Sequence record: DRR723986_1326
DNA: 20,000 bases
Direction: 5' to 3' (one strand)
Shown here: positions 1-18,105 of the stretch, one piece after another
Numbering within the stretch: position 1 is the first letter of the stretch
Layout of the letters: every line of letters starts with the position of its first letter
Notes under the pieces: model-generated
Database searches by the model: none
The model's input: only the letters and a program-made list of their open reading frames with translations
What the model was told of the DNA's origin: nothing
Made by a program: the position numbers and the translations under genes

Positions 1-311
1 CTTATGCAGGCAGTTTGCGAGTCTTTGAGCTAGTGCACACACCGGCACACCTGGAATCCGTTGGCGCGGCTCTATGGGCGGCGTCCGCGTTTATCATCCT
101 GGCTTTCTTGGGTGTCTACCTTGTCCAACTGCTGGCCATCAAGACACTTCCTAGCCGATCTCTCAATGCAATGTATGTTCACGCTCTCAACGGGTTTTAC
201 CTCGACACAATCGCACACCGTGTTGCTGCCAAGATCAGTGGCCATGACCTGAAGGTTGCCCCCGCTTACTCATCAAGTGTTTCGTTGACATCCCGGCGGA
301 AGCGTAGTTGA
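1..311 (+). CDS. dabB: 3' end (partial, runs off left edge) of DabB/MpsA-like NuoL/ND5-type membrane subunit of a DAB inorganic carbon transporter
   Basis: The frame is open from the window edge to TGA at 309-311. It encodes a hydrophobic helix (AALWAASAFIILAFLGVYLVQLL) followed by 'MYVHALNGFYLD', which resembles the C-terminal motif of DabB-type subunits. It lies 65 bp upstream of a DUF2309 gene, the usual dabB-dabA order. Confidence 0.8.
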   Translation, partial: YAGSLRVFELVHTPAHLESVGAALWAASAFIILAFLGVYLVQLLAIKTLPSRSLNAMYVHALNGFYLDTIAHRVAAKISGHDLKVAPAYSSSVSLTSRRKRS

Positions 312-376: not shown

Positions 377-2959
377 ATGATCGACAAATGCTGGGAAACC
401 GAAAGCGAATCATTCACCGGCGGACAAGTGGCCACACAACCGCGCAGCTCCATTCCAACCAAGTCAGTGCCCAAACCCACGCAATCCTCGGCTGAAAAAA
501 TGAAGAAATCACTCCCGAACGCCTTCAGGGCAATCGCCCCAGCTTGGCCTCTGAAGGACATGGTGGCTGTGAATCCGTTTACGGAGTTGGCTGATCGCAA
601 CCTATTCGAGCTCCATAGCGAGCTGCGAACTGTTCGCGACACTCAGCTCCTCATGCCGCTAAGCTACTACCAGGCTCAGTTTGATCACGGTGTTCTAACG
701 AAGGCCAATATCTCACAAGCCTTAACAGAGTGTTCGAAGCAGTTTCCAAATCGTTTCGACGGTATTAGCTGGGAAGCCTTGGAGCTCACCCTTGCCGGTC
801 AGCCGAAAGACGAAGAAGGAGATCGCCAGTTTTTGACAATCGCTGAAGTTGCCGACAAGGCTGCGGAGGCGCCGCACTGGGTTGCTTTGATCATCGACGA
901 TGTGTCAAAGTACTGCGCCGCATACTTCGACGCTGGGCAAGCGATATGGAACGCCGCGCGACCTTCCACCGAAGCTACCAACAACCTATACAGCTCGTGG
1001 AAGCAACTGGCGGAGATTGATCGCCGTCTGGAGGTCTACGGTCTGCCCGGTTTTAGGAAGTTTGTTTCTGATCTTCCCGATACACCTGAGGAAGCAATCG
1101 AGGTCCTAACGAAGGCCTGCGGAGTGCCCGAAGTAGCCACCGAAAAATTCTGGCAGGCGGAGCTCTTCAGCGTTGGTGGGTGGGCTTCGTACGCGAAGTA
1201 CGTCGACCGGATCAACAAAATCGAGAACGTGGAGAATGGAGAGCTGGCGAGCCTGTTGGCAATCCGCCTAGCCTATGACTACGCACTGGTTCACCTTGGC
1301 GCGATCGAGTCCACGGCAATCGCTTGGTCTGCCAAACCGTCTCCGGATTCCGCTGACCACAGCGAAACGAAGATCTGCTACGTACTACAAACCGCTTTGG
1401 AAATCGCTTATCGATCCAAGATGCTCGACGGAGTGCTAGCCGCCCGTCCAAGTTTTCCGACCGGTACCGAGCAAGCGCCGGCGGAGTTCAATCTTGTATT
1501 TTGCATCGATGTGCGCAGCGAGATTATCCGTCGCCATCTGGAAAGCCAGTCCTCAGGACTCAATACATTCGGTTTTGCCGGATTTTTTGGAATCGCCGCT
1601 CAGCATCAATCCCCTGCATCGGCAGCAACGAACCAGTGCCCAGTTCTCCTGGACCCGGCCGTCGTCATTTCCGAATCAGGAGCGTCTGCCGACGAGCTTG
1701 GCAGGCAGCGTTCACGTGGCAAGTTCCTGCTGGAGGGCATCAAACGCCTCCAAGGAGCCGCCGTTTCTGGATTCGCATTTGTGGAATCCTGGGGCTTGAG
1801 CTACTTGCCCAGCATGATCTCGAGTGCGTTTCGGCCGAGTCTTCGGAAGGCAGGTTTAGCAGGCAAGACACCGACCAGCCAAACGACCAGTACTGGTTGC
1901 GATGTTCACCTGCAGGACCTGGAAAACAACAATCTGTCCGTTGAAGCGCAGGCCGACGTAGCCGCGAGCATCTTAAAGCACCTGGGCTTAACCAAGAACT
2001 TCGGAAAACTGTCGGTCTTCTGTGGTCATGGCAGTGCAACTGTCAACAATCCACTTCGTGCCGGACTCGACTGCGGCGCGTGCGGTGGCCACTCCGGTGA
2101 ATCGAATGCGAAGATGGCAGCAACGCTACTGAACTCGCCTGAGGTGCGTAAGATCCTGGCGACAAAGGGCTACTCGATCCCCGACGAAACGCACTTCATG
2201 GCCGCGGTGCACAACACCACGACCGACGAACTAAGATTCCTCGATACGGAGAAGGTTCCTGCAGCACTTGCAAGTGACCTGGCCGCGCTTCAAGCTCACT
2301 GCGATGCCGCGTCGGCACTTGCCAGAGCTGAGCGTGCAAAGAGATTCGTCGATTGCAGTGATGGTGAACAACTGCCTTTGAGAAGCACTGATTGGTCCGA
2401 AGTACGACCGGAATGGGGACTAGCAGGCAATGCGGCCTTTGTCGTCGCACCCCGATGGCGGACCAAACAACTCAAATTAGGCGGGCGTAGCTTCCTGCAC
2501 TCCTACGAGTACGAGCAAGACGAGGGATTCGCAACGCTTGAGCTGATTCTGACTGCGCCGATGGTGGTCACCAACTGGATCAACATGCAGTATTACGCCA
2601 GCGTCGTTGACAACAAGAACTATGGCTGCGGCAACAAGGCAATACACAACGTCGTTGGTAAGATTGGCGTCCAGGAAGGCAATGGAGGGGATCTCCGCAA
2701 CGGCCTTGCGCTGCAGTCCATCCATGACGGGGAAGGGCTACAGCACGAACCGCTTCGGTTGCAAGTGTTTGTCGAAGCACCTCGTGACGCAATCGCGGAC
2801 ATTCTGGGTCGACACGCGCATGTCGAAGACCTAGCCGCCAAGGGTTGGCTGCATTTGCATGCTATCGAATCGGGCGACTCGGAAACTTGCTACCGCTACT
2901 TGGGCAGCGGCCATTGGGATGAAATCCGCTCTCTCGAGCAAACTGCGTCGGCGAATTAG
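377..2959 (+). CDS. dabA: DabA/MpsB (DUF2309/UPF0753) beta-carbonic-anhydrase-like subunit of the DAB inorganic carbon pump
   Basis: 860-aa ORF with family motifs IAPAWPL..MVAVNPF, FCIDVRSE (C376/D378), CGHGS (H551), LDCGACGG (C566), DWSEVRPEWGLAGNA, GRSFLHSY, TAPMVVTNWINMQYYAS and HEPLRL. AGGA at 363-366 is a plausible RBS. Confidence 0.95.
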   Translation: MIDKCWETESESFTGGQVATQPRSSIPTKSVPKPTQSSAEKMKKSLPNAFRAIAPAWPLKDMVAVNPFTELADRNLFELHSELRTVRDTQLLMPLSYYQAQFDHGVLTKANISQALTECSKQFPNRFDGISWEALELTLAGQPKDEEGDRQFLTIAEVADKAAEAPHWVALIIDDVSKYCAAYFDAGQAIWNAARPSTEATNNLYSSWKQLAEIDRRLEVYGLPGFRKFVSDLPDTPEEAIEVLTKACGVPEVATEKFWQAELFSVGGWASYAKYVDRINKIENVENGELASLLAIRLAYDYALVHLGAIESTAIAWSAKPSPDSADHSETKICYVLQTALEIAYRSKMLDGVLAARPSFPTGTEQAPAEFNLVFCIDVRSEIIRRHLESQSSGLNTFGFAGFFGIAAQHQSPASAATNQCPVLLDPAVVISESGASADELGRQRSRGKFLLEGIKRLQGAAVSGFAFVESWGLSYLPSMISSAFRPSLRKAGLAGKTPTSQTTSTGCDVHLQDLENNNLSVEAQADVAASILKHLGLTKNFGKLSVFCGHGSATVNNPLRAGLDCGACGGHSGESNAKMAATLLNSPEVRKILATKGYSIPDETHFMAAVHNTTTDELRFLDTEKVPAALASDLAALQAHCDAASALARAERAKRFVDCSDGEQLPLRSTDWSEVRPEWGLAGNAAFVVAPRWRTKQLKLGGRSFLHSYEYEQDEGFATLELILTAPMVVTNWINMQYYASVVDNKNYGCGNKAIHNVVGKIGVQEGNGGDLRNGLALQSIHDGEGLQHEPLRLQVFVEAPRDAIADILGRHAHVEDLAAKGWLHLHAIESGDSETCYRYLGSGHWDEIRSLEQTASAN

Positions 2960-2983: not shown

Positions 2984-3015
2984 CGACGCCGAATCCATCG
3001 GCGTCGATTTCTTCT
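2984..3015 (+). terminator. Probable intrinsic terminator after dabA
   Basis: Perfect 9-bp stem CGACGCCGA (2984-2992), loop ATCCA, TCGGCGTCG (2998-3006), followed by ATTTCTTCT. It begins 24 nt after the dabA stop. Confidence 0.65.
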
Positions 3016-3409: not shown

Positions 3410-5509
3410 GTGAGCAATTACGAATCGGAAGATCGACGTATTCTGGAAGCGCTGCGGCGTATCGGAATCTGTCTCGACATCACGGTCGATACCGCGGCAC
3501 TGAACCTGGGCGACGTACGCGTCGACGAAGATGACGACCGCCAAAGTCGCCTGTTGGTAGAAGGTGCGCGGCAAGCTGGCATCTACATGACACCTCAAGA
3601 GGATGTCACCAGCCAGGAAGTGTTGAGTTCACTCTCGGAAAGCTTCCCGGTTGTTATCTCACAAGAGGATGGCACCTACTGGGTCTTCGAACAACTCGTT
3701 GGCGGCAAAGTCGAAGCGAGTCGGATTACGACCCGCGTAGAAGTTCAACTGCTTACCGAATCCGACGTAGCCCGCGAACTGAGAACCGAACATCAAGCCT
3801 GGCTTTGCAAGCGGGAACTAGAGTGTTCTACGATGAGCGCCACCGACGAGCATGGTGGGCACGACGATCATCATCACGATCATCCAAAACCACTCTCCCG
3901 ATTCATCGCTCTGCTCAACCTCGACCGGCGCGATATCTGGGCTATCGTTGTGTTCGCCACAGTAGCTGGAGTCCTGGGACTCGCAACACCACTGGCGATT
4001 GAGTCGCTCGTGAACGTTGTGAGCTGGGGCACATACGTTCAACCGCTGCTTGTCTTGGGCTTGATGCTGCTGGCTTGCCTGGGCCTCGCTGGCATCCTGA
4101 AAGTTCTACAAACGGTCGTAGTCGAAATCATTCAGCGTCGACAACTCGTTCGCATTGTCGGTGACCTGGCGCATCGATTCCCACGAGCCTCGCAATCAGC
4201 CCTCAGCGGCATCTATCCTCGCGAGCTGGCGAATCGCGTGTTTGACATCATGACGATTCAGAAGGCCAGCGCGGTGTTATTGATGGATGGTGTCTCAATC
4301 ATCCTGACAACGATCATGGGCTTGCTCTTGCTTGCCTTCTATCACCCATTCCTGCTTGGATTCGATATCGCCCTGTTGTTGTGCATGCTCGGTTTTACAT
4401 GGGCACTGGGGCGTGGTGGGATCCGGACAGCGATTGCAGAATCGATCACCAAGTATCGCATTGCCCACTGGCTGCAAGACGTACTGTCAACACCGGCAGC
4501 GTTTAAGGTGAACGGAGGCGAAACGCTTGCCATCGAACGGGCCAACCGCCTAACAGCGGATTACATCAGTGCTCGACAAAAACAATTCCGTGTAGTTATT
4601 CGCCAAATTGCTTTTGCGATTGGTTTGCAAGTCGTCGCATCAACCGCACTCCTTGGGTTGGGTGGATGGTTGGTGATGAGTCAGGAACTTACGCTTGGCC
4701 AATTGGTTGCTAGTGAACTTGTTGTCACGGTTGTCGTAGGGGCATTTGCCAAGGCAGGTAAATCGCTCGAGAAATTCTACGACTTGATGGCTGGCATTGA
4801 TAAAGTTGGGCACCTGCTCGATATTCCCGTCGACCCGCGTTATGAGATCGGTGAGATTCCCGCGGAACCGGTTGACGTTCACTGGGAAACACTCAATTTC
4901 GCTTTTGCTAACACCGGCAGCTCATGCTCTGTGCCGTCGCACACGGTCGAAGCTGGCACAACACTGGCTATCATCGGAGGCGACCGCACGGGCAAGTCTC
5001 TGTTGATTCGTTCACTTGCTGGTTTGATCAAACCCAAGAACGGCATGGCTCAAATCGGTGGCTTCGACGCCCAGAGAGCATCTTTGGCTGGGTCTGGGCG
5101 ACTGGTTGGTTTGGCAAACCGTGGGGAAATTTTCCACGCCACCATTGAAGAAAACATCGACGTTGGCCGCAGCTTTGTCGGTAACAACCGTGTCCGTGAC
5201 GCTCTTGTCCAAGTCGGGCTATGGGACACGATTATGCGACTTCCAAACGGTCTACAGACTGTTTTGCAAAGCAATGGATCTCCGCTATCGAGCACGCAGA
5301 AGGCGCAGCTCATCATCGCTAGAGCGATTGCCGGCGGGCCAAGTCTGCTGCTGATCGACAGTCTGCTGGACGACCTGACTCCGGAGGTTCGCGAGTCTTT
5401 GTGGAAAACACTCGCCTGCGACGACGCGCCTTGGACCCTGATCTTGGTGACGAACCAGCGATCGATTGCCAACCTGTGTGATAACAAACTCGAACTTCAG
5501 GGAGCTTAA
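3410..5509 (+). CDS. T1SS/HlyB-like ABC exporter (N-terminal accessory domain + transmembrane domain + degenerate NBD)
   Basis: 699 aa with a GTG start. It has an ABC_membrane-type TMD (LGLATPLAIESLVN, LTLGQLVASELVV) and a C-terminal NBD with Walker A-like GGDRTGKS, IFHATIEENI, LPNGLQT, LSSTQ and LLLIDS. It is followed closely by MFP and OMF genes. Confidence 0.9.
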   Translation: MSNYESEDRRILEALRRIGICLDITVDTAALNLGDVRVDEDDDRQSRLLVEGARQAGIYMTPQEDVTSQEVLSSLSESFPVVISQEDGTYWVFEQLVGGKVEASRITTRVEVQLLTESDVARELRTEHQAWLCKRELECSTMSATDEHGGHDDHHHDHPKPLSRFIALLNLDRRDIWAIVVFATVAGVLGLATPLAIESLVNVVSWGTYVQPLLVLGLMLLACLGLAGILKVLQTVVVEIIQRRQLVRIVGDLAHRFPRASQSALSGIYPRELANRVFDIMTIQKASAVLLMDGVSIILTTIMGLLLLAFYHPFLLGFDIALLLCMLGFTWALGRGGIRTAIAESITKYRIAHWLQDVLSTPAAFKVNGGETLAIERANRLTADYISARQKQFRVVIRQIAFAIGLQVVASTALLGLGGWLVMSQELTLGQLVASELVVTVVVGAFAKAGKSLEKFYDLMAGIDKVGHLLDIPVDPRYEIGEIPAEPVDVHWETLNFAFANTGSSCSVPSHTVEAGTTLAIIGGDRTGKSLLIRSLAGLIKPKNGMAQIGGFDAQRASLAGSGRLVGLANRGEIFHATIEENIDVGRSFVGNNRVRDALVQVGLWDTIMRLPNGLQTVLQSNGSPLSSTQKAQLIIARAIAGGPSLLLIDSLLDDLTPEVRESLWKTLACDDAPWTLILVTNQRSIANLCDNKLELQGA

Positions 5510-5511
5510 AC

Positions 5512-6861
5512 ATGAGCAATCAACAAGAATTACTCTGTGCAGATTTCCCAGCTCTCCACTTGGTTCGCACGGGCCGCCGCGTTCGCCTGCTGGGCCGACT
5601 GACTTTGTACGCCTTGATCGCAACCATCATTTTGATGGTTTTCGTTCCCTGGCGGCAAACGGCGCGAGGAACAGGAACAGTCGTGGCAACAGACCCACAA
5701 CAACGCCCACAACCGGTGTTGTGCCCGGCCGAGGGTGTCATCGAGTGGACACGTGAAGACCTTCGCGAAGGGTCGTACGTCGAGAGAGGAGACTTGGTCG
5801 CTCGAATCGCGCCATTCGCAGAAGATACCATCGCGCAGCTACAACAGCAGATTGATACCGTGAAGCTAAAGAAGGAGGCGGCTGAGCTCGCACTCAAAGC
5901 GGCTGAGCTGGCACAGCAGGGTCAGAAGGAGGCAGGCCAGCGATTTAATGAGGCTCTGGACGATGAACTGGAGGCCGCGGAGAGCAAGCTGGAGCAAGTA
6001 AAGAACGATGTTCCGCAAATGCAGGCTGACTTGAATGATAAAATCAACAAGTACAACAACGCTCTCAAGGTAACCCCGCTGACGGTTGCTCGCGAGGAGT
6101 TGTTCTCGATGAGGCAAGAAGTCGATGCGGCGCAGGTGAAACTGGAGAAAGCCAACAACGCCGTACTCCAAGCTAAGGCGGATTTGAGATCCAAGCAAGC
6201 CGACGTTCAAGGCAAGCGACTCGAGATCGAAATCAAGAACAATAAAGCTGACATTGACGTCAGAGAGAAGCAAGACAAGCTGAATTCGATCGTCAACGAG
6301 ATGACAGAGTACCAAAACAAGAAGGATGGGTATCGACTCGACATCACTGCTCCGCGAAGCGGTTTTATTCAGCAATGGACCAGCGTCGTCGGTAGCGACA
6401 TTGTGAAGAAGGGCGATGCGCTCTGCATCATCGTCCCTGAGACAACCGACCTGGCGGTGGAGATGCAGGTTACTGGCAACGACATGCCGCTTATTCACGA
6501 AGGCGATCGCGTCCGACTGCAATTCGAAGGCTGGCCTGCGGTCCAGTTCGTCGGCTGGCCAAGTGTGGCTGTAGGTACGTTTGGCGGTAAAGTCAACCGC
6601 GTCTTCCCAACTGATGATAGCAAGGGGAACTTTCGGGTAGTTGTTACGCCTGACAAGCACTTTGACGGAGAGAGCGATTGGCCGGATAGCCGATACCTTC
6701 GTCAAGGCGTGAGAGCAAACGGATGGGTGCTTCTTAGACAGGTTCCACTTGGATACGAAATATGGCGTCAGTTGAACGGATTCCCACCAGTCGTTTCAGA
6801 CGAAGAGCCAGGAAAGGGCAAGGACGACAAGGGCTCGAAGGTCAAACTGCCAAAGGCCTAG
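5512..6861 (+). CDS. HlyD-family membrane fusion protein (periplasmic adaptor)
   Basis: 449 aa, starting 2 bp after the ABC stop. It has one N-terminal TM helix, lipoyl half-motifs (EGSYVERGDLV; ITAPRSG..VKKGDAL), a long coiled coil and a beta-barrel region (IHEGDRVRLQFEGWP). Confidence 0.92.
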   Translation: MSNQQELLCADFPALHLVRTGRRVRLLGRLTLYALIATIILMVFVPWRQTARGTGTVVATDPQQRPQPVLCPAEGVIEWTREDLREGSYVERGDLVARIAPFAEDTIAQLQQQIDTVKLKKEAAELALKAAELAQQGQKEAGQRFNEALDDELEAAESKLEQVKNDVPQMQADLNDKINKYNNALKVTPLTVAREELFSMRQEVDAAQVKLEKANNAVLQAKADLRSKQADVQGKRLEIEIKNNKADIDVREKQDKLNSIVNEMTEYQNKKDGYRLDITAPRSGFIQQWTSVVGSDIVKKGDALCIIVPETTDLAVEMQVTGNDMPLIHEGDRVRLQFEGWPAVQFVGWPSVAVGTFGGKVNRVFPTDDSKGNFRVVVTPDKHFDGESDWPDSRYLRQGVRANGWVLLRQVPLGYEIWRQLNGFPPVVSDEEPGKGKDDKGSKVKLPKA

Positions 6862-6869
6862 AGAACCGC

Positions 6870-8990
6870 TTGCTTCGTAGAGGATTGCTAGCAAAGTGGT
6901 TGCGATCGAGCTCCCAATTTGTAGCTCCTCACCTGATTGGCGCTACGTTGCTGGTCGCTGGCTCAACCGGCTGTGCCCAATTGGACTCGTTCCGTAAACA
7001 CAGGGTTACACCGAAAGAGACCACTCAACTTTCGGCCCCTGAGCCCAAGTCCTCGCGGAAATCATCCGTGCAGCAGGAGGAGCGTCTATCCAACGTTCCT
7101 GTTGTTCCAACCAGTTTCCACGCGCCAATCGATCCAGCGCAGAATCAAACGGGCCAAGCTACAGCCGCTCAGACGCCAAACGCGCAGCCAACGTTAACGC
7201 AAACGACAACCGCGCCCACGGTTGCGCCGCAGGGTCAGCAGTCAAGCCGAGTTGCCGCGCAGCCGGTTGGCTATGCAAGACCAGTTGCGCAAGAGGCACC
7301 CGCGACGCTGATCGAGGGACAGCCATCCCAGTTGCCAAATGTCATGCCACCAGAGATTCAGGTGGCCCCAGGATCACCGGCAGTGCGGTCTGATCAGGTC
7401 GCCGCTCCTCAAAACGGCCCACTCCCAGCGCCAGGCGCGAGCGAACCGCAGGCAGGCGGTGAACAAGGAACAGCCCCGGAGATGGGTGAAACAACCGGTT
7501 ATGCGGGCGACTCTTTCCTCTCCCTCGCTGATGTCATTGCCAGTGTCTATCAAGCCTTTCCGATGATCAACGCGGCGAGGCAAGAGCGGCAAATCGCTGG
7601 CGGTCAACTCCAGCAAGCCTGGGGTGCGTACGATACGAAACTTCAAGGCTATACGCTCAACGAACCCCTGGGCTTTTACAGAAACTTTCGTCAGGGCCTT
7701 GGCGTAGCACGACAAACATGGTGGGGCGGTTATGTATCGGCCGGTTATCGCCTCGGTCGTGGTGATTTCCAACCTTGGTACAAAGAACGTGAGACCAATG
7801 AAGGCGGCGAGTTCAAAATAGCTTTTGCCCAACCGCTGCTCCGCGGAAGAGCGATCGATCCACAGCGAGTCGCAGTCTTCCAAGCTTCGTTGGCAACGCG
7901 TGCAGCGGATCCCATCGTACAGCAGGCAATTCTGGACACATCTCAAGAAGCTGCTACGACCTATTGGAAGTGGGTTGCTGCTGGCGCTACTCTCCAAGCG
8001 CAACGCGAGCTACTTGAACTTGCTACTACACGTGGCGACGGGCTGGAGGCAGACTATAAGGCCAATCGGATCCCAGTAGTCGACTTAGTTTACAACCGCA
8101 AACTGATCGCCGACCGAACGACCTCTCAACTCAAGGCGCTCCAGAAGTTTCGAGAGGCCTCCGCAAAACTGTCCCTCTTTCTTCGTGACGAAATGGGCAA
8201 TCCGCTCAACGCTGATATTGATTGGGTTCCCCAACACTTTCCTGAGATTCAATCCTATACACCCAGGGATTTCGCTAGCGACTTCTCCGATGCACTTCGA
8301 CGCCGTCCAGAGCCGACGCTCCTACGTTTCGAAATGCAACAAGTGCAACTGGAGCGGCAGCTAGCGCGGAATGACTTACTGCCAAATCTCGACCTCGTCG
8401 CAGAAACATCACAGGACACCGGTCTGAGAGCTTCCAGCTCGAATGACAAAGGGCAATTCGAAATCGTAGTTGGTTTGCAAGGAGAAGTGCCGCTACAACG
8501 GAACAAGGCACAAGGTAAGCAAATCGAAACGCTAGCAAAGATTCAGCAGATATCGAACAAAATCGAGTATACGGAGAATAAGATCGGAGCCGAACTACAG
8601 CGAGCTCGCGCCGCCTTAGATCTGGCCGAACAAATCGTTGAGCAAGCGGAAGAGGGGCTACTGCAGTCTATCCGCGCCCTCTCTATCTACAACAAAGTGT
8701 TCGAAATCGGTGGCAAAGCCAACCTTATTCTCATCAACATTCTTGAAACAGAAGTGAATGAGAGTGAGCTTAAGCTTGTCGAAGCCCAACAGAATTGGTT
8801 TATTGCTCTTGTCGACTTCCAGGCCGTGCTCGGGTTAAACCCACTGGACCAAGCGATGACGGTCTCGCAACTTCCAGAATCGCAGCGCGCTGGTCCAGGA
8901 TTCCTGCCTGAACCTGAAATGGTTTCACCAGAAGAACTGGAGCGCGAAATGGAGCTTCTAGGAAACCCTAGTCTGCAACCACAACCGTAA
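6870..8990 (+). CDS. TolC/OMF-family outer membrane channel, predicted lipoprotein
   Basis: OEP-type repeats (LSLADVIASVYQAFP, FAQPLLRGRAID, LARNDLLPNLDL, EVPLQRNKAQG). A hydrophobic signal ends in a lipobox-like STG-C (Cys codon 6972-6974). The start is uncertain: in-frame TTG at 6870, 6885 or 6900 fits the signal peptide better than the ATG at 6762, which overlaps the MFP gene by 100 nt. Confidence 0.85.
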   Translation: MLRRGLLAKWLRSSSQFVAPHLIGATLLVAGSTGCAQLDSFRKHRVTPKETTQLSAPEPKSSRKSSVQQEERLSNVPVVPTSFHAPIDPAQNQTGQATAAQTPNAQPTLTQTTTAPTVAPQGQQSSRVAAQPVGYARPVAQEAPATLIEGQPSQLPNVMPPEIQVAPGSPAVRSDQVAAPQNGPLPAPGASEPQAGGEQGTAPEMGETTGYAGDSFLSLADVIASVYQAFPMINAARQERQIAGGQLQQAWGAYDTKLQGYTLNEPLGFYRNFRQGLGVARQTWWGGYVSAGYRLGRGDFQPWYKERETNEGGEFKIAFAQPLLRGRAIDPQRVAVFQASLATRAADPIVQQAILDTSQEAATTYWKWVAAGATLQAQRELLELATTRGDGLEADYKANRIPVVDLVYNRKLIADRTTSQLKALQKFREASAKLSLFLRDEMGNPLNADIDWVPQHFPEIQSYTPRDFASDFSDALRRRPEPTLLRFEMQQVQLERQLARNDLLPNLDLVAETSQDTGLRASSSNDKGQFEIVVGLQGEVPLQRNKAQGKQIETLAKIQQISNKIEYTENKIGAELQRARAALDLAEQIVEQAEEGLLQSIRALSIYNKVFEIGGKANLILINILETEVNESELKLVEAQQNWFIALVDFQAVLGLNPLDQAMTVSQLPESQRAGPGFLPEPEMVSPEELEREMELLGNPSLQPQP

Positions 8991-9030: not shown

Positions 9031-11334
9031 TCACGGCAGCACCTGAGCGTCGTCGTCTCCCAGCACTCGCGAGAGCTGCTGCATGGTGCGATCGAGCTTT
9101 TGGTAAGCGTAGAACGATGCGATGAGTCCGACGCCGGTAATGACCACTCCGGTCAGAATCAGGTTCTCATGTGCCTGATCGCTTAGGACGATCAAGCCCA
9201 GTGCCGCCAACGGAATCATTGCCGCGGAAAGCAGGTACCAACGCATCTGTCGACGGATCGCAGCACAGCGACCACCGAATCCGGCGTCGTCCATCGTCGG
9301 TGCAATGACCGCAGGGTAGTACACGACGATCGCAAGAAGCGTCATCCCGAAATATGGGTAGATCCACGCCACGCCTCCACAAAGCACAAGGGAGACGAAG
9401 AAGTGGAACGCGTCATCAAGATCAAACTCTGAGTGCATTGTGGCAAACGAAGTCGCAAACACAACTCCGGAAACAGTCCATAGGATGCCACAGATTAGCG
9501 TGGCATAATTTCCGATCTGCCACAGTCGCCTCAGTTCATGCGTTGAGACTGCGTCGCCGGCGCGTGCTCGGCGGACGATCTTGACAATCGGCCAAGTAAT
9601 CCACAAGAACAACAAGCCGCCCAGAGGGAACACGATTGCGTTGACCAGATTTGCGACGTATCGGAAGTCTTCCTCAATCCCCTCAATTTGCAACGGAACC
9701 TGGCTGGCCTCCGAGGCGATCGCGGACGAACTCTTCACCGAGGATTGAAATGCGGGATCAATGTCCTTCATGCGTTGGTGATTGTAGTAGTAGTTGAAGA
9801 CGCTGGCCGCCGTGTTGGGGCCGAAAATAAGCGCGGCAGCAACCAACAGCACCGGCAGACACAACAGCCAGCCCGCGAGACTGTTCTTTGCTGGCTGAAA
9901 GCACTCGGCCAGATCGGGGTAGAACGCGAGCTTCAGTCGTGCCGCAGCCTCTTTACCACTCCGCGGCCGCCGCTCAGGATCGACGTTCAAGAGGTCCCGA
10001 ACAACCTTCTCGAGTGCTCGTTCAGTGGCCGTCTCAGCAGGGAACTCCGGCACGAACTCCTTTTCTCGAACATCACGTTGCAACTTAACAGCCTCAGTCC
10101 AACTAGCCGCCAACTCGGATAGCTGCCAGGGGCGTTTTCCTTGCCAGAGTTCCCACAGGACAATCCCCAACGCGTACAAATCGCTCCGACCGTCCAGTTG
10201 ATCTGCGGAAAGGCTGTCCAGTGGGTCGGCAACCTGCAGTTGCTCGGGGGACATATACGCCAGAGAACCTCCAAAGTAGGCTGCCGCTCCAGCACGACCG
10301 CCCAGTCCACTGCAACTTACGTTGAAGTCGGCCAGTTTCGGAATCGCTTCACCAGACAACAGAATGTTCGCGGGCTTTACATCGCGATGCAAAACACCTT
10401 TCGTGTCGGCATAGCCCAGCCCCTCGGCCAATTGAATTCCGATCCAGCTAACGGCTTCGGCCCATGACATCTCTGCGATGGCAGCTCGTATTGCGGATTG
10501 CTCGGGCACTGACTGGTTTGCGGCAAGCAGACTGCGATCAATCGCCTCAAGCACGTGCTTGCCAGCCCACAACTTGCGAGGCAAAGCGCGAACATGCTTG
10601 ATCGTGTCGGCAACTGTACCGCCGGGTAGATACTGCATGTACAGCAAGATGGTTGGCGGCTGATGAATCTCTCGTTGGTCAAAGACTCGCACCACATTCG
10701 GATGATCCAACTGCGAAAGTGCTTGCGGCTCCGAACTTCCTCGCGAGGTAGCCTTTAGCGCAACGAGTCGCTGCATCGATTCTTGGCGAGCGAGATAGAC
10801 CCGTGCAAAGGCGCCTTGCCCCAGTTGCTTAAGGATATGGAAATCGTCGACTTGCTCACCAACAGGAAGTTCGGGAACTCGCGACGCAACTCCGGTAAAC
10901 TCTTGTGTTTCGCCACCAGCAAGCCACTTTCCAATCGTAGCAGCCAAGTCTGGAAAACGCTGTCGGTAGTCTTCCCAAGAAGGTCGCTGCCCGGCCGCGC
11001 GGCGCAGTTGCACTTCTTCCAGCACTAGATCGAACGGCACCAACTCACTTGGAAGCAACTCAGCAACGGCTGGCCAGTAGAATTCCAGCGTTCTCGCTTG
11101 GCCGTGTTCGTGGGCTGTGGCCAAGTCGAACTTCATCAGTTCAACGAGGATTAGTCGCGTTGATTCTGCCGACGCGGTGGGGATGAGTTCAATTAATTGT
11201 GTTGCCGAATCAACCGGAGATAGGCCACTCAGTTGATCCATGCACATTTCTAGGAGCGCAAACGACGCTTCGATAGTCTCGCCGTCGAAGTCTTGATCCT
11301 GATCTTGGTCCTGCTTACGGGGCTGTTCAGACAT
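9031..11334 (-). CDS. Hanks-type Ser/Thr protein kinase with C-terminal multi-pass membrane domain
   Basis: 767 aa with LGQGAFARVY (P-loop), VALK, HPNVVRV, HRDVKPANILL, ADFN (DFG position), GGSLAYMSPEQ, SDLYALGIVLWEL and PERRP. About 6 hydrophobic segments lie in the C-terminal ~280 aa. Confidence 0.95.
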   Translation of the reverse strand: MSEQPRKQDQDQDQDFDGETIEASFALLEMCMDQLSGLSPVDSATQLIELIPTASAESTRLILVELMKFDLATAHEHGQARTLEFYWPAVAELLPSELVPFDLVLEEVQLRRAAGQRPSWEDYRQRFPDLAATIGKWLAGGETQEFTGVASRVPELPVGEQVDDFHILKQLGQGAFARVYLARQESMQRLVALKATSRGSSEPQALSQLDHPNVVRVFDQREIHQPPTILLYMQYLPGGTVADTIKHVRALPRKLWAGKHVLEAIDRSLLAANQSVPEQSAIRAAIAEMSWAEAVSWIGIQLAEGLGYADTKGVLHRDVKPANILLSGEAIPKLADFNVSCSGLGGRAGAAAYFGGSLAYMSPEQLQVADPLDSLSADQLDGRSDLYALGIVLWELWQGKRPWQLSELAASWTEAVKLQRDVREKEFVPEFPAETATERALEKVVRDLLNVDPERRPRSGKEAAARLKLAFYPDLAECFQPAKNSLAGWLLCLPVLLVAAALIFGPNTAASVFNYYYNHQRMKDIDPAFQSSVKSSSAIASEASQVPLQIEGIEEDFRYVANLVNAIVFPLGGLLFLWITWPIVKIVRRARAGDAVSTHELRRLWQIGNYATLICGILWTVSGVVFATSFATMHSEFDLDDAFHFFVSLVLCGGVAWIYPYFGMTLLAIVVYYPAVIAPTMDDAGFGGRCAAIRRQMRWYLLSAAMIPLAALGLIVLSDQAHENLILTGVVITGVGLIASFYAYQKLDRTMQQLSRVLGDDDAQVLP

Positions 11335-11916
11335 AAATCATGTTGTGGCGTTTGGATGGATCGGGCGTGACTACCAACAAGCATTGCTCTGGAGATGCAA
11401 TTACATTGTTGCACGCGACGGAGTGAGGAGACAGGTACGACTGCAAGACAAATCGTTTGTAGGGCAGGGCACTTGCCGCTTCGCCAACCCAGATTGGACG
11501 CTCCGTGCAGCTAGACAGGCCGTTATGCCGCGGTCGGAGAACCATATGCTTGGCGGATAGCCGCCTCTTGCGACTATGCCTTAGCCCCTCCGCACTTCTG
11601 GGATTGCCGCCAATGCGTTAAAATGACGCCTCAACTGCACCGCCTGCGGGCTGGAATGAATTCTTGCGATTTCAACTTTCTCAAGGATGAGCGCGGACGA
11701 AATCTATTGGTCGTCGTTTGATCGGCTCGCTGAACCACTATCTAGTCGTGGTCTACATCGTGCTGACCAGACGGCGATCTCTGCATTTGACACCACCGGG
11801 AAGCTGCACCACGAAGTGAGACAGTTGCCTCGGTGGCGTTCGTTTTGTGCCGATACAATCGTGACGTAAAACCGGTTTACGTCGATCGAGCAACTAGCAG
11901 CAAAAAAGGATGAGCC

Positions 11917-12405
11917 ATGGCCGAGATGGTCCCAATGACTCGCGAAAAGTACAACGAGATTCGCGCCGAAGTGGAGCAACTTGAGAACATCGAGATGCCC
12001 AAAGTTGCGGAGAAGATCGCCGAAGCCCGCGCCGAAGGCGACTTGAAAGAGAACGCCGAATATCACGCCCAGCGTGAAAATCAGGGCATGCTGCAGGCGA
12101 AGATCAACCAGAAAAAGCAGATGATTGCCAACGCGTACATCATCGACCCTAGCAAACTGTCCAAGGACGAAGTTGGTTTGCTGGCAACGGTAGTGGTCAA
12201 AGATCTAGACTACAACGACGAGGAAGAATTCACGCTCGTCGGCGCTGGCGATGAAGACTACGACACGGGCAAGATCCTATCGACCAGTCCAATCGGGGCA
12301 GCGTTGATGGGTACCAAGATCGGCGACAAAGTCGAGGTCGAAGTGCCCAAAGGCACCTTGAAGTTCGAGATCTTGGAAATCAAATACGACTTCGGCGATG
12401 AGTAA
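11917..12405 (+). CDS. greA: Transcription elongation factor GreA
   Basis: 162 aa with the signature [18 protein letters not shown] and C-terminal [39 protein letters not shown] lies upstream of the ATG. Confidence 0.97.
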
Positions 12406-13403: not shown

Positions 13404-15095
13404 ATGGCTTTCCTCTCAGCAATTAGCGGCTCGAACTTTGGCAGACGTTTCGACTTGAAGAAGCCTGAAACGGTTCTGGGTCGGCACCCCGAGTGTGACG
13501 TCACCATCGACGTTGGCGCGGTCAGCCGACAACATGCCCGCATCCTCAAACGCGATGAGAATCAGTTTGAAATCGAGGATCTCAAGAGCCGCAATAACAC
13601 GTTCTTGAACGGGCAGAAAATCACGTCGCCGGTTCCATTGCATGATGGTGACCTGATACGAATTTGCGATGTCGAGTATTCCTTTCATGTCGAAGACGGC
13701 ACGGGGCTGTTGTCAGGCAATACCATCGCGGGCGCCGATGGCCAGTCGTCGGTCAGCGTACTGCTTGTCGACGACAGCGGCGAAGATGAGTCATCCAGAG
13801 CCGTTAGCAGCAAACTTGATATCCGAGGAAGCCAACATGGATCGCAACTAACCAGTTCATCTGAGGCTCGACTACACGCAGTGTTGCAGATTGCTCAAAA
13901 TCTTGGGCGGGCAATCCAATTGGAGGAAGTGCTGCCGAAAGTGCTCGACACGCTCTTCAAAATCTTCTTGCAGGCCGATCGCGCCTTCGTTGTCCTCAAG
14001 GAGGGTGAAGAGCTGATTCCCCGATGGGTGAAGACTAGGCAACCAGATCAATCGGAGGCGTTTCGAATTAGCCGAACAGTTATGAACGAAGTCATGGAGG
14101 CGAAGCAGGCGATCATATCGCTCAACGCGTCTACAGACGAACGATTCGGCATGGCAAACAGCATCTCCGATTTCCGCATTCGTTCTATCATCGTCGCACC
14201 GCTGCTTGATTCCGATGACAATGCGCTAGGTGCGATTCAGATCGACACCATCAATCCGAAACGGCATTTCAATGACGAGGACCTTGAGATCCTAGCTGGT
14301 GTAGCGACTCAAGCGGGCATCGCCATCGAGAATGCGCAAATGCACGACCAACTGGTTCAGCAAGAACGCGTAAACAAGGATTTGCAATTAGCACGCAACG
14401 TCCAAGAAGCTTTTTTGCCCGTTGATGCACCCGAGCTGGAGAACTACTCGTTCTTCCATTTCTATCGTCCCGCTGACCAGATCGGCGGCGACTACTTCGA
14501 TTACATCCGCCTGGCTGATGGACGAATTGGCATTGTAACCGCGGACGTTTCCGGTCACGGCATTGCGGCGGCCATGTTGATGGCAAAGCTCTCTGCAGAA
14601 ACGCGGTTTCTGCTTGCCAGCCATACGGACACAGCCGAGGCGATAACAAACCTCAACAAACGATTCTGGGCGCTGGACGTGAAGATGTTCGCCACCTTCT
14701 TATGTCTCGTCCTGGACCCGGAATCTGGAACGGTGGAGATGGTCAACGCTGGACATATGTTACCGATGTGGATCGATAGCGATGGACACATCCAAGAACC
14801 CGGAGACTCAATCACCGGCGTTCCAATTGGTGTCCTACCAGATTTTGAGTATCAACAAGCGTCAATCCAGCTCAAGCCAGGTGACCGACTGTTGCTATTC
14901 ACCGACGGAATTCACGAAGCCAACTCAGCCTCGGGAGAGCTGTACGGACTTGAGCGACTGCGGTGTATCGCCTCGCAGCATCCTGACGACGTTAAAGAGT
15001 TCGGTGAAACGGTCATCACCGACGTCAATCGATTTGCAGACGGCGTAGAACAATCCGACGACATGTGCTTGGTTGTTCTATCGAGAGAGGACTAA
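13404..15095 (+). CDS. FHA-GAF-SpoIIE (PP2C/RsbU-type) protein-serine phosphatase
   Basis: 563 aa. FHA motifs LGRHPECD, VSRQHA and DLKSRNNTFLNG; GAF region IRSIIVAPL..GAIQID..FNDEDLEIL..AGIAIENA; PP2C motifs IGGDYFD, ADVSGHG, NAGH, LFTDG and SDDMC. Confidence 0.95.
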   Translation: MAFLSAISGSNFGRRFDLKKPETVLGRHPECDVTIDVGAVSRQHARILKRDENQFEIEDLKSRNNTFLNGQKITSPVPLHDGDLIRICDVEYSFHVEDGTGLLSGNTIAGADGQSSVSVLLVDDSGEDESSRAVSSKLDIRGSQHGSQLTSSSEARLHAVLQIAQNLGRAIQLEEVLPKVLDTLFKIFLQADRAFVVLKEGEELIPRWVKTRQPDQSEAFRISRTVMNEVMEAKQAIISLNASTDERFGMANSISDFRIRSIIVAPLLDSDDNALGAIQIDTINPKRHFNDEDLEILAGVATQAGIAIENAQMHDQLVQQERVNKDLQLARNVQEAFLPVDAPELENYSFFHFYRPADQIGGDYFDYIRLADGRIGIVTADVSGHGIAAAMLMAKLSAETRFLLASHTDTAEAITNLNKRFWALDVKMFATFLCLVLDPESGTVEMVNAGHMLPMWIDSDGHIQEPGDSITGVPIGVLPDFEYQQASIQLKPGDRLLLFTDGIHEANSASGELYGLERLRCIASQHPDDVKEFGETVITDVNRFADGVEQSDDMCLVVLSRED

Positions 15096-15107: not shown

Positions 15108-15965
15108 CTATCCCAGGGGCAACTCATCCGCATCGCCGCGTGGACGAACGAATCGATAACGTACGATGCAGTAGATTGCATTCACGAGATCTCGCCATCC
15201 GATCTTCTTACCTTCATCGCGGCTTCGGCACGAGTAACCGACGCCAACCTCTTCAATCTTGAGCTTCAGTTGAGCACACTTGGCAGTGATCTCCGGCTCG
15301 AATCCGAACCGAGATTGCTCGATACTGACCTGCTGCAGAACCCTCCGATCAAACGCTTTGTAACACGTTTCCATGTCGGTAAGCTGGTAGCCGGTGAGTT
15401 TGTTGGACAGGAAGGTGAGTGCCCAATTTCCAAACCTGTGCAATGCTGATGGATCTTGCTCAGGAGTTTCCAAATAACGCGACCCGTAGCAGACGCTGGT
15501 TGAACCATCTTGAATGGGCGCGATGACCTTCATGATATCGGTCGGGTTGTATTCCAGATCTGCATCTTGAACTATCACGATATCGCCGCGCGCTCTCTCG
15601 AATCCTGTCTGCAAGGCCGCTCCCTTGCCACGGTTTTGCTCGTGATGCACGACCTCGACTTCGTCGTACTTAGCCAGTTCGTCGACCCGCTGTGGGGTCG
15701 CGTCAGTGCTACCGTCATCGACCACGATGATTTGCTTGTCGATGGGCAACTGGCGAACTTTTTCGACGATTTCGAATACCGTTTCCGGCTCGTTGTAGAC
15801 GGGAATGACTACAGTCAAAGGAAACGTATCGGGCCGCAGAGCGCTACGAACCAAGTCATCGGCGTACTCCAACACGGAATCAAACCGCTCGACAATCTCG
15901 CTAATGTCTGCATCGCGAGCAGGTGCTGAGGTGGATACCGGTTTGTTGGAAATCACTGAATTCAT
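15108..15965 (-). CDS. Glycosyltransferase family 2 (DPM1/polyprenol-phosphate glycosyltransferase-like)
   Basis: 285 aa with VVIPVYNE, IIVVDDGSTD, NRGKGAAL, QDADLEY (DxD), YGSRY, TDMETCYK and GFEPEITAK. The exact start is uncertain. Confidence 0.93.
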   Translation of the reverse strand: MNSVISNKPVSTSAPARDADISEIVERFDSVLEYADDLVRSALRPDTFPLTVVIPVYNEPETVFEIVEKVRQLPIDKQIIVVDDGSTDATPQRVDELAKYDEVEVVHHEQNRGKGAALQTGFERARGDIVIVQDADLEYNPTDIMKVIAPIQDGSTSVCYGSRYLETPEQDPSALHRFGNWALTFLSNKLTGYQLTDMETCYKAFDRRVLQQVSIEQSRFGFEPEITAKCAQLKLKIEEVGVGYSCRSRDEGKKIGWRDLVNAIYCIVRYRFVRPRGDADELPLG

Positions 15966-16179
15966 GAGTAGACCCGCTGGGCTTGCGCGAAGTAGATGGG
16001 TACAAGTTTTCGTCGCGAAAGAGTAGCATTCCGGTTGTGCGATATTGAGAACTTTATCGGCCTGCGGTTACTGTTACGGCCAAAGACCTTGTCGGACGGC
16101 CACCCAGGCTCGCCGATCGCTACAATCCGCACGCTACACTGACGACTTTGGTACTCAAACTGAGCACCCGCGAGAGCCT

Positions 16180-18105
16180 ATGACGCCTGAGACACTGCTG
16201 CCCTTCTTTCTGGTCCTTGTTCCGTTGGTCGGAATCTTCGCGCAGTGGCTGGCGTGGCGGATGAAGATTCCAAGCATCCTCCTGCTGCTCGTCTTCGGGA
16301 TTTGCCTGGGCACATGGATCTCACCAGACTCCGTGCTGGCCAAAGCGGCTGGGACGGACGAAAGTCTCGGTCCAAAGCTGCTGTTTCCGATCGTCTCGTT
16401 GAGCGTCGCCATTATCCTCTTTGAAGGCGGCCTAACACTCCGATGGAATCAGTTGGGAGCAAGCGCGCCGGTCGTTTTTCGCCTGATCACGATCTCGTCG
16501 GTCGTCACTTGGATTCTGACTGCCGTTCTCGCAAAGTACCTGCTCGGCTTCAGTTGGCAACTTGCGTGGCTACTGGGCGCCGTCCTGATGGTGACCGGCC
16601 CAACAGTCGTCGGACCGTTGCTTCGACAGATCCGCCCCAACCGACAAACCAGCTCAATCCTTCAGTGGGAGGGCATTCTCATCGACCCGGTAGGTGCCGT
16701 TGCGGCAGTGCTGGTTTATGAAGTCATCGCCCACTCCGGAGCGGTCGGCCCCAGCGAGATTGCTGCAATCGTATTCGAAACACTGCTAATCGGAGTTGTG
16801 ATTGGATGTGTTGCAGCCGCGTTGCTGATCATTAGCTTGAGAAAGTTCTGGATTCCTGATTTCCTGCACGGAGTCGTTTTTCTGGTTGTCGCGCTAGCAA
16901 CGTTCTGGCTGAGCAATTGGATGAGCGAAGAATCTGGATTGGTGACCGTAACTATCCTTGGAATTTGCCTTGCGAATCAGAAGTACGTCAGTGTTGAACA
17001 CGTCCTCGAATTCAAGGAGCATCTACGTGTTCTCCTGATTAGCTGCCTATTCATCGTGCTCGGTTCCCGCCTTCAGCTATCATCTCTGGCGGAAATTGGA
17101 TGGATGGGGCTACCATTTGTTCTGCTGCTCGTCTTAGCCGTTCGACCAATCAGCGTGTTCCTGGGAACGTTAGGCTCTAAATGGGACATCCGCGAAAGGA
17201 CCTTTGTAAGCTTCGTTGCCCCTCGCGGAATCGTAGCAGCCTCGGTCGCCAGCGTTTTCGGACTGAAACTGGCGTCCGTTGGTCATGCCCAGGAGCTCAA
17301 TGTCGCTTTTGAGAAAGCTGACCTGCTAGTACCGGTGACCTTCCTAACAATTCTCGGAACAGTGTTGATCTGCGGCATGGGCGCCGGACCGCTGGCGCGG
17401 AAGCTGGGCCTGGCCGACTCAAACCCTCAAGGGATCTTGTTTGCCGGTGCAAGTCGTTGGGTCAGAGAGTTTGCGATAACGCTACAGACTGCGGGCATTC
17501 GCTCGGTGCTGATCGACACGAACTTTGGCAATGTCACCGCGGCTCGCATGGCCGGACTGACCGCAACTTGTGGAAACATACTGTCCGAGCACGTCCGTGA
17601 TGAACAGGATCTAGCCGGAATTGGACGATTCCTAGCTGTAACCCCCAGTGACGAAGTCAATACGCTGGCCACGATGGAACTAATGCACCTGTTCACTCGG
17701 GCCGAAGTCTACCAAGTCTCCGGCGGTGGCAAACAGCATAGTCGCTGGGATAGCATTCCAGAGAGTCGTCGCGGACGCACTCTTTTTGCTGGCGACATTA
17801 CGCATCGACAACTCGATGCGCTGATCGAAGCTGGAGCGACTTTGAAGTTGACGCTGCTCACGAAAGAATTCCCGATGGCAGCTTTTGAGGAGCAGCACGG
17901 CGAGGGGATGATTCCAATTGCTAAAATCACTGAAGAAGGGCAATTGCGACTTCGGGTCGCCAGCGGAGAACTCGATCCGCTTCCGGGTGACAGCATTGTC
18001 GCTATCGTGCCGAGCGTCGCATCCGCCGCAACCAGCAATGCTCTCCAGACATCAGCAAACTCGGATGTCGAAGCCACAGACGACTCCGAAGACGATCTAA
18101 TCTAG
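16180..18105 (+). CDS. CPA1/NhaP-type cation:proton antiporter with C-terminal RCK/TrkA-N-like domain
   Basis: About 13 TM segments with SVAIILFEGGL, VTGPTVVGPLL, WEGILIDPVGA and APRGIVAAS, followed by a Rossmann-like tail (GILFAGAS..SVLIDTN). The ATG at 16180, after GAGAG, is preferred over the upstream TTG at 16045. Confidence 0.92.
   Translation: MTPETLLPFFLVLVPLVGIFAQWLAWRMKIPSILLLLVFGICLGTWISPDSVLAKAAGTDESLGPKLLFPIVSLSVAIILFEGGLTLRWNQLGASAPVVFRLITISSVVTWILTAVLAKYLLGFSWQLAWLLGAVLMVTGPTVVGPLLRQIRPNRQTSSILQWEGILIDPVGAVAAVLVYEVIAHSGAVGPSEIAAIVFETLLIGVVIGCVAAALLIISLRKFWIPDFLHGVVFLVVALATFWLSNWMSEESGLVTVTILGICLANQKYVSVEHVLEFKEHLRVLLISCLFIVLGSRLQLSSLAEIGWMGLPFVLLLVLAVRPISVFLGTLGSKWDIRERTFVSFVAPRGIVAASVASVFGLKLASVGHAQELNVAFEKADLLVPVTFLTILGTVLICGMGAGPLARKLGLADSNPQGILFAGASRWVREFAITLQTAGIRSVLIDTNFGNVTAARMAGLTATCGNILSEHVRDEQDLAGIGRFLAVTPSDEVNTLATMELMHLFTRAEVYQVSGGGKQHSRWDSIPESRRGRTLFAGDITHRQLDALIEAGATLKLTLLTKEFPMAAFEEQHGEGMIPIAKITEEGQLRLRVASGELDPLPGDSIVAIVPSVASAATSNALQTSANSDVEATDDSEDDLI

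Follow-up and report, generated by a model that had tools for sequence, protein, structure and literature searches.

A HlyB-like ABC protein with a degenerate ATP site as the only ABC subunit of an adaptor- and TolC-associated gene trio

Introduction

How can an exporter of the ATP-binding cassette (ABC) type work if its only ABC subunit lacks the residues that hydrolyse ATP? This question is raised by a stretch of 20,000 nucleotides from sequence record DRR723986_1326 (the window), in which a gene for an ABC half-transporter is followed by genes for a HlyD-like membrane-fusion or adaptor protein (MFP) and a TolC-like outer-membrane factor (OMF). In an ABC exporter, one ATP site at the least is expected to be functional. 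A preliminary description of the window, made from its letters alone, read the ABC protein as a pseudo-ATPase and considered three ways out: a partner encoded elsewhere, a gate that only binds ATP, or another source of energy. The analysis presented here indicates that ATP hydrolysis has very probably been lost in this protein, as judged from the established roles of the replaced glutamate and histidine. It is also likely that most of the family to which the protein belongs works without ATP hydrolysis, a conclusion that we hold more firmly than any single model of how transport would be energised.

Results

Five motifs deviate in an intact gene

When assigned by alignment to P-glycoprotein, the Walker A, Q-loop, signature, Walker B and H-switch motifs of the nucleotide-binding domain (NBD) all deviate from consensus, and their first-reported coordinates hold (Table 1). 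The claims that the Walker A GKS triplet and the Walker B aspartate are kept (K529, S530 and D650) and that the reading frame is full length were likewise correct: positions 3410-5509 on the plus strand are open from end to end and encode 699 residues. All five motifs recur in P0001 and P0257, two relatives at 90% identity, and in two public runs contigs extend gap-free over the NBD. Record 8 of run X1 spans 4904-5600 with 10 other letters and record 13 of run X2 spans 3641-5600 with 130, in a comparison that lists only the best-supported differences. Because close relatives share the motifs and independent contigs span the domain, the deviations are not an assembly error. The protein is indeed the sole ABC subunit of its operon: the ABC-MFP-OMF cluster at 3410-8990 contains a single ABC gene, and no further ABC ATPase or exporter gene was found among the window's open reading frames that were scanned.

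The protein is a distant branch of the type I secretion ABC transporters

The AF2 model of the ABC protein (pLDDT 89.7) contains a full NBD fold. Its top Foldseek match was HlyB (8dck/7sgr, about 705 columns), and PCAT1 was also matched along the whole length. Searches of Pfam and of PDB sequences gave no identity for the N-terminal domain; fold comparison alone did. The first 140 residues, folded separately, matched best HlyB's C39-like domain (CLD, 3zua; Z 11.6, rmsd 3.8, 124 residues aligned; Foldseek E 1.5e-3). All NCBIfam models of type I secretion systems (T1SS) scored far below their cut-offs, the best being type_I_sec_LssB with 134.7 bits against 693, followed by PrtD (111 against 510) and HlyB (107.5 against 726). 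Given the full-length fold match to HlyB and PCAT1 and the CLD match, combined with these scores, the protein is a distant branch of the T1SS ABC transporters. The C39-like domain has zero invariant columns (41 sequences), and family members of 550-590 residues do without it. The linker ahead of the transmembrane domain (TMD) is rich in histidine in most Pirellulaceae and in L132, L133, L135 and L137, and is not so in most Bacteroidia-type members.

The degenerate site is widespread in a large family

A search for relatives yielded 64 loci in Planctomycetota, Bacteroidota and Bdellovibrionota, one of which (L064, an unrelated ABC gene) was dropped. Searches of 302 genomes were positive for 28 of 151 Bacteroidota and for 13 of 151 in the Planctomycetota sample. 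A metagenome scan added 80 further loci; its pattern contained the glutamate of E436, discussed below, and is therefore biased at that site. Altogether the family comprises at least 1,200 protein clusters. ABC, MFP and OMF genes are all present in 89 of the 104 genome loci, the remainder mostly ending at a contig edge. One match per genome is the rule, as seen in 5/5 genomes of relatives, in 13/13 positive Planctomycetota and in 27/28 positive Bacteroidota; the 28th, G115, has two dead copies, each within its own trio. Large plasmids in Persicobacter and Fulvitalea carry members as well (L297 and L298; three records). Gene order varies in a few places: the OMF gene lies upstream of the ABC gene in L013, L017 and L024, with a MarR-like gene between them in the latter two, and in L116 the ABC and MFP genes are separated by an inserted gene for a family 1 glycosyltransferase (10461-11591).

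A set of 156 sequences from Planctomycetota, made up of 108 non-duplicate proteins, the window protein and those of 47 loci (L064 and the pieces of L005 being left out), contains no catalytic glutamate. The position of this residue is taken by glycine in 114 and by serine in 11 of them. The H-switch histidine remains in 7/156, while Walker A has lysine in 66 and arginine in 61; the Gly-Gly positions of the signature are highly variable, and the replacements differ by lineage. Among 170 locus-derived members with a whole NBD (10 more loci are incomplete), 150 lack at least one of the Walker A lysine and serine/threonine, the Walker B aspartate, the catalytic glutamate and the H-switch histidine (K, S/T, D, E and H); the Walker A lysine itself is found in 115 of the 170. 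P0001, P0002, P0005 and P0257 keep lysine, serine and the Walker B aspartate like the window protein. In the literature outside subscription journals and supplements we found no description of this ABC family, and the database names "toxin secretion ABC transporter" or "HlyB" given to these proteins are probably misleading.

Selection acts on the whole gene and most strongly on the membrane domain

Ratios of dN to dS were obtained from Nei-Gojobori counts with our own script for 27 close pairs, several of them with saturated dS. For the unsaturated pairs the ratio was 0.02-0.11 in the NBD and 0.01-0.07 in the TMD, and it was far below 1 in all three domains. Columns conserved to at least 95% make up 133 of 305 in the TMD versus 19 of 209 in the NBD (156 sequences). 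Mean pair identities for TMD and NBD are 62/43% and 46/30% in the family, compared with 57/70, 40/59, 42/60, 46/52 and 35/63% in five canonical exporter groups of the same genomes. These comparisons indicate that the NBD is retained as a fold and that functional selection sits in the membrane domain. Together with the absence of the catalytic glutamate from all 156 Planctomycetota sequences, they uphold the assignment as a pseudo-ATPase rather than a gene in decay. That the gene is a decaying relic is scarcely credible: frameshifted copies exist in L005 and L281, where they may be assembly errors, but the low ratios extend across three domains and the trio is intact in at least three phyla. 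Homolog alignment, proposed in the preliminary description as a check on its reading, thus gave a divided answer, in that the NBD is under purifying selection but the exact changes of Glu to Ser, His to Asn and Gly-Gly to Ser-Thr are not conserved.

ATPase-intact relatives share the single-ABC layout

The 20 locus-derived members that keep K, S/T, D, E and H are scattered over a tree built from the TMD alone. This FastTree phylogeny, which has some long branches, contains at least 9 changes between the intact and the dead state and 22 changes in the state of the Walker A lysine. A search started from one intact member returned 120 proteins, all of which keep K, D, E and H; this sister clade bears the names Gemmataceae, Schlesneria, Bryobacteraceae and, once, Pirellulaceae. 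The intact loci L233, L234, L242, L255, L256 and L291 have the same trio of one ABC gene with MFP and OMF. In the proteins P0258-P0377 and in L233, L242 and L255, the signature is fixed as LSLGQ (Leu in 113/120) and the Q-loop region (KG[IV]E) has no glutamine, so that even the active-looking members are non-standard.

Since the intact sister clade shares the three-gene layout, the simplest reading of these sequences would be an ancestral active homodimer from which hydrolysis was lost several times, no partner gene being gained. Intact homologs together with decay confined to this lineage had been named in advance as an outcome that would speak against a pseudo-ATPase. The first part applies (20/170 and 120/120), the second does not, because dead members occur in several phyla and evolve under purifying selection. 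Natural pairs of intact and dead members in one layout, such as a Gemmata and a Rhodopirellula protein, allow the switch to be compared directly.

Candidate coupling residues in the membrane domain

In the AF2 model, transmembrane helix (TM) 6 extends from residue 430 to 470 and E436 lies about six residues into it from the periplasmic side. None of the 156 sequences of the dead Planctomycetota set is without this glutamate, and among 101 loci that were found without the E-containing pattern, 100 have it; among 150 dead loci the column contains one valine and no glutamine. In the intact clade, 12 of 120 proteins have glutamine instead, by 5 changes on the tree. Other exporters from 10 inventoried genomes have no glutamate in this column. 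Two further charges are nearly fixed, D293 in TM3 (acidic in 175/179) and K448 (basic in 178/180). As glutamine appears only where the ATPase is intact, the role of E436 might be one that ATP can replace, a hint, and only that, that the residue matters most where ATP cannot be used. Precedents for such residues are reported for SbmA, a type IV ABC TMD described as driven by protons and equipped with a glutamate ladder, which is proposed to have arisen from a full ABC transporter by loss of the NBD (PMC13316013), and for LmrA, whose TM6 residue E314 is reported to be needed in ion-coupled transport (PMC6155054).

Neighbouring genes and possible cargo

An open reading frame with two or more RTX repeats occurs in one of 184 loci, a count made within the loci, with no search for distant cargo or small leader peptides. 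TetR homologs are found in 23 of 42 loci of the Bacteroidota set and MarR homologs in 15 of 60 of the Planctomycetota set; such neighbours are usual for small-molecule pumps. We consider it somewhat probable that the cargo is a small solute and not a protein.

Genes of inorganic-carbon metabolism (DabA/B, SbtA, SulP, beta-carbonic anhydrase (CA) or PEPC) lie near 31 of the 184 loci, 17 of 104 from genomes and 14 of 80 from metagenomes, and near none of 17 control exporter loci. By gene, the genome loci contain DabA in 7 cases, PEPC in 6, beta-CA and DabB in 4 each, and SulP and SbtA in 2 each. DabA occurs in 9/184 loci, where at most 0.4 would be expected with one copy per 6-Mb genome, the loci not being independent. 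Genome-wide, family-positive and family-negative Bacteroidota have DabA in 7/28 versus 1/123 and Planctomycetota in 9/13 versus 13/138; the corresponding values for SbtA in Bacteroidota are 16/28 versus 24/123. These co-occurrence counts are uncorrected for kinship and genome size. A confounding difference between aerobes and anaerobes is unlikely to explain the Bacteroidota figures for DabA, as COX1 is present in 139 of 151 genomes. The association with CO2/bicarbonate or with pH balance lies well beyond what chance would give; it names neither substrate nor direction. That the cargo itself is linked to inorganic carbon is a tentative proposal. DabAB is described as a gradient-coupled inorganic-carbon pump that also occurs in heterotrophs (bioRxiv 10.1101/476713), and the recurrent association with DabAB, SbtA, SulP/carbonic anhydrase and PEPC suggests that bicarbonate supply in heterotrophs involves a part of the envelope that has gone unrecognised. 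Cation/H+ antiporter genes (PF00999) also stand near the trio, at 6338-7948 in L026, 11460-13415 in L015, 13770-16094 in L120 and 16045-18105 in the window, and would fit a context of pH homeostasis.

Other connections were considered and set aside. Metal export, suggested by the His-rich linker and by Zn enzymes nearby, is rated low: most Bacteroidia-type members lack this linker, and neither SbtA nor PEPC is a Zn enzyme. The TolC protein CHU_2807 of C. hutchinsonii is reported to serve Ca2+/Mg2+ uptake (PMC7906972, PMC11611037). We make no link to it, as a search with the family OMF gave no Cytophaga-named match among the 120 matches listed; at 49.9 kDa it is also somewhat small beside family OMFs of 460-470 residues. 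The SecA_DEAD/T1SS module, as described in PMC4452313, lacks an ABC transporter and represents another system, and the F. johnsoniae TolC of PMC10197871 belongs to a different operon.

A proposed mechanism and its alternatives

Of the three ways out considered at the start, an energy source other than ATP fits the sequence data best. The sole ABC-type subunit of the HlyB-HlyD-TolC-like trio would act as a homodimer in which the dead NBD serves as a structural clamp. The TMD would cycle by coupling to H+ or Na+ through the buried E436, acting with D293 and K448. The adaptor and the outer-membrane channel would let through a small solute that may have to do with the supply of CO2/bicarbonate or the balance of pH. 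Ion coupling of the TMD we regard as evenly balanced between true and false, and the combination of homodimer, structural NBD, ion-coupled TMD and small solute passing through MFP and OMF as slightly short of that. In evolutionary terms, a T1SS branch might have switched repeatedly from ATP to ion-gradient drive while keeping the dead NBD, the adaptor and TolC, and contribute, in Planctomycetota, Bacteroidota and others, to the homeostasis of inorganic carbon or pH, the intact clade representing the "before" state; this wider scenario is rather doubtful.

Several observations weigh against this proposal. E436 is also present in most ATPase-intact members (108/120 proteins and 20/20 loci) and may be a substrate-binding or gate residue instead of an ion-coupling site. 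GKS and D650 persist in the window protein and in those most closely related to it. Unlike SbmA, no member with a closed reading frame has lost its NBD, although no targeted search for NBD-less forms was made. That many members retain the C39-like domain suggests that the ancestral cargo was a protein or peptide. As to the neighbourhood, 153 of the 184 loci, which are related to one another, have no inorganic-carbon gene nearby; the co-occurrence of PEPC is weak (6/13 versus 29/138, p 0.08); and co-occurrence is inflated by the large size of the positive Planctomycetota genomes (5.4-10.5 Mb). Finally, the layout is not uniform: further exporter genes directly follow the trio in L019, a separate ABC ATPase with its own permease lies just upstream of it in L018, L029 and L031, and in L039 and L221 the ABC gene has neither MFP nor OMF in about 8 kb downstream. 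The last two loci belong to a "GIVGAADS/GTLGAADS" clade without the Walker A lysine; the related L040 has the trio, and L221 lies near PEPC.

The ABC protein could instead form a heterodimer, as its degenerate half, with an active half from another place in the genome; precedents for degenerate sites exist among heterodimers and full transporters that have one active site (PMC7756269). The partner search covered genomes of relatives (302 searched, 10 inventoried), and in these no partner was found. Five relatives' genomes contain one family member each, the next match having an E value of 1e-27 or weaker, and none of the 41 positive genomes has an intact paralog, the only second copy being the dead one in G115. 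No adjacent second half-transporter is present in the window or in the trios of related loci, apart from the exporter genes of L019. An inventory of PF00664 proteins in the 10 genomes (52 of 54 loci yielded a protein) gave 3-6 other type IV exporter halves per genome, mostly with canonical motifs, from which a partner might be drawn. They comprise MsbA/Mdl-like groups with NBD-dominated conservation, singletons, one other degenerate family and one protein of PCAT length (L205). A remote MsbA-like partner is unlikely, and no T1SS-type partner in trans was found in these genomes, another ABC protein of the peptidase-containing T1SS/PCAT length occurring in only this one of the 10. In three Planctomycetota genomes, at L177 (G210), L179 (G289) and L185 (G190), there is a second, unrelated type IV exporter half whose NBD is even more degenerate: it has no recognisable Walker A, an LTIGE, LDAGQ or IGVGE signature and an IEEPE Walker B. 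Intact and dead members moreover have the identical single-ABC layout, and a heterodimer would still need the signature of this protein for its partner's active site, whereas that signature is unconstrained. We therefore consider a heterodimer very unlikely.

A homodimer might also operate unenergised, a solute running downhill through the TMD dimer and over both membranes; HCO3-, a different ion or a small organic acid would be examples. E436 and K448 would then be selectivity or pH-gating residues, and the energy would come from pumps or sinks nearby, such as DabAB, SbtA, CA or PEPC. Whatever speaks for a dead motor and a constrained TMD speaks just as much for such a conduit, repeated and easy loss of the ATPase is expected where energy input is unneeded, and the neighbours are inorganic-carbon pumps and sinks. 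We rate it as unlikely in view of the ion leaks that an open envelope-spanning pore risks and of the change of E436 to glutamine only beside an intact ATPase, which suggests a role replaceable by ATP. Unhydrolysed ATP or another nucleotide might gate the TMD, as at the degenerate sites of the CFTR/SUR type. This second of the original possibilities draws on the retention of K529, S530 and D650 here and of their counterparts in P0001, P0002, P0005 and P0257, on the 115/170 locus-derived members with lysine, on the purifying selection on the NBD, and on LmrA, in which ATP binding alone is reported to start currents (PMC6155054). It is weakened by the Planctomycetota relatives, only 66/156 of which have the lysine, the motif often being an acidic loop such as GDDVNGRS, as well as by the variable signature glycines and the 22 lysine-state changes on the tree, and is quite unlikely overall. 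A slow, non-canonical ATPase sufficient for transport is highly improbable: ABCB1 with both Walker B glutamates changed is reported to keep residual activity (PMC7756269), but here glutamate, histidine, glutamine and signature are lost together, with unrelated replacements by lineage and no alternative polar residue conserved at these positions.

Organisation of the window

The closest named relatives of the ABC protein, at 62-68% identity, are Pirellulaceae, and the window therefore likely derives from this family. Its features are collected in Table 1. The true start of the OMF gene is probably later than that of its longest open reading frame; a putative lipobox-like cysteine lies near 6972. 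The upstream dabA gene is possibly transcribed separately from the trio; a terminator-like hairpin at 2984-3006 is weak (2 found versus 0.7 +/- 1.1 in shuffles), and no match to a sigma-70-type promoter was found upstream. Elsewhere the window contains genes that are ordinary for planctomycetes and not recurrently associated with the trio: a Ser/Thr kinase with membrane segments (9031-11334, minus strand), GreA (11917-12405), a FHA-GAF-SpoIIE phosphatase (13404-15095), a GT2 glycosyltransferase (15108-15965, minus strand) and a sugar-type ABC permease (18915-19865).

Table 1. Features of the trio, of the ABC protein and of the upstream genes in the window.
Feature	Position	Strand	Basis and remarks
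Probable DabB, C-terminal end only, truncated at the start of the window	15-311	+	tblastn of L038 DabB, 41% over 44 aa, E 4e-6
DabA inorganic-carbon pump subunit	377-2959	+	PF10070, E 2.6e-238; neighbour gene, 450 bp upstream of ABC gene
HlyB/PCAT-like ABC half-transporter, NBD very probably catalytically dead	3410-5509	+	699 aa, GTG start; ORF list, Pfam, NCBIfam, AF2, Foldseek
N-terminal C39-like domain	3410-3829	+	Fold comparison; weakly conserved, missing from many members
His-rich linker ahead of TMD	3845-3889	+	Sequence
Type IV ABC TMD	3890-4825	+	Best-conserved part; carries D293 (4286-4288), H312, E436 (4715-4717, TM6) and K448
ABC_membrane	residues 177-445 of ABC protein	+	Pfam
ABC_tran	residues 510-650 of ABC protein	+	Pfam
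Walker A GGDRTGKS	4976-4999	+	G523-S530; R526 at second Gly; K529 and S530 kept
Q-loop region without Gln	5105-5134	+	R571 opposite the P-glycoprotein Q-loop Gln
Signature LSSTQ	5285-5299	+	Alignment
Walker B LLLIDS (5345-5362) and altered D-loop	5345-5377	+	D650 kept; S651 for catalytic Glu
N682 in place of H-switch His	5453-5455	+	Alignment
HlyD-like MFP	5512-6861	+	449 aa; Pfam/NCBIfam; 2 bp past ABC stop
TolC-like OMF	6762-8990	+	OEP PF02321; longest ORF

Comparison with known systems

The closest architectural counterparts are the T1SS of the HlyB-HlyD-TolC type (E. coli; PDB 7SGR/8DCK, CLD 3ZUA) and transporters of the LssB/PCAT type. The CLD-TMD-NBD arrangement, with a type IV TMD and an optional C39 or C39-like domain, is shared, as are the ABC-MFP-OMF trio in the same gene order and the single ABC gene, from which a homodimer is presumed. 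Differences lie in the low identity (17%) and the sub-cut-off scores, in the absence of the catalytic Glu and His, the Gln and the LSGGQ signature from the ABC protein, in the near absence of RTX-type cargo from the loci, and in the TetR/MarR neighbours and the TM6 glutamate. The canonical ATP-hydrolysing residues K, D, E and H of the T1SS are found in the sister clade alone. In heterodimeric exporters with a single degenerate site, such as TM287/288, TmrAB, BmrCD and TAP, the same fold carries similar substitutions in Walker B, H-loop and signature; these transporters are reported to keep one consensus site (PMC7756269), whereas here the motifs for both sites are lost and no second half was found.

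For the proposed energisation, LmrA and MsbA offer a partial parallel, in that proton-coupled transport requires a TM6 glutamate and ion gradients can drive the protein, according to PMC6155054. They have active NBDs and no tripartite channel, and E314 and E436 are likened as TM6 glutamates only. SbmA/BacA, of the SLiPT type, resembles the family more closely in function as we propose it, combining a type IV ABC TMD with membrane glutamates and no ATP hydrolysis (PMC13316013). SbmA has lost the NBD and coupling helices, has a YddA-like ABC origin, imports peptides and has no MFP or OMF, and its ion coupling is demonstrated, whereas in the present family coupling would rely on the conserved E436 and D293. 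SLiPTs are defined by the lack of NBD and coupling helices and by an extra TM0; this family keeps a folded dead NBD and belongs to the T1SS branch. It may thus work like SbmA and yet is no SLiPT. SbmA represents only the end point of a switch from primary to ATP-independent transport, whereas this family has both states.

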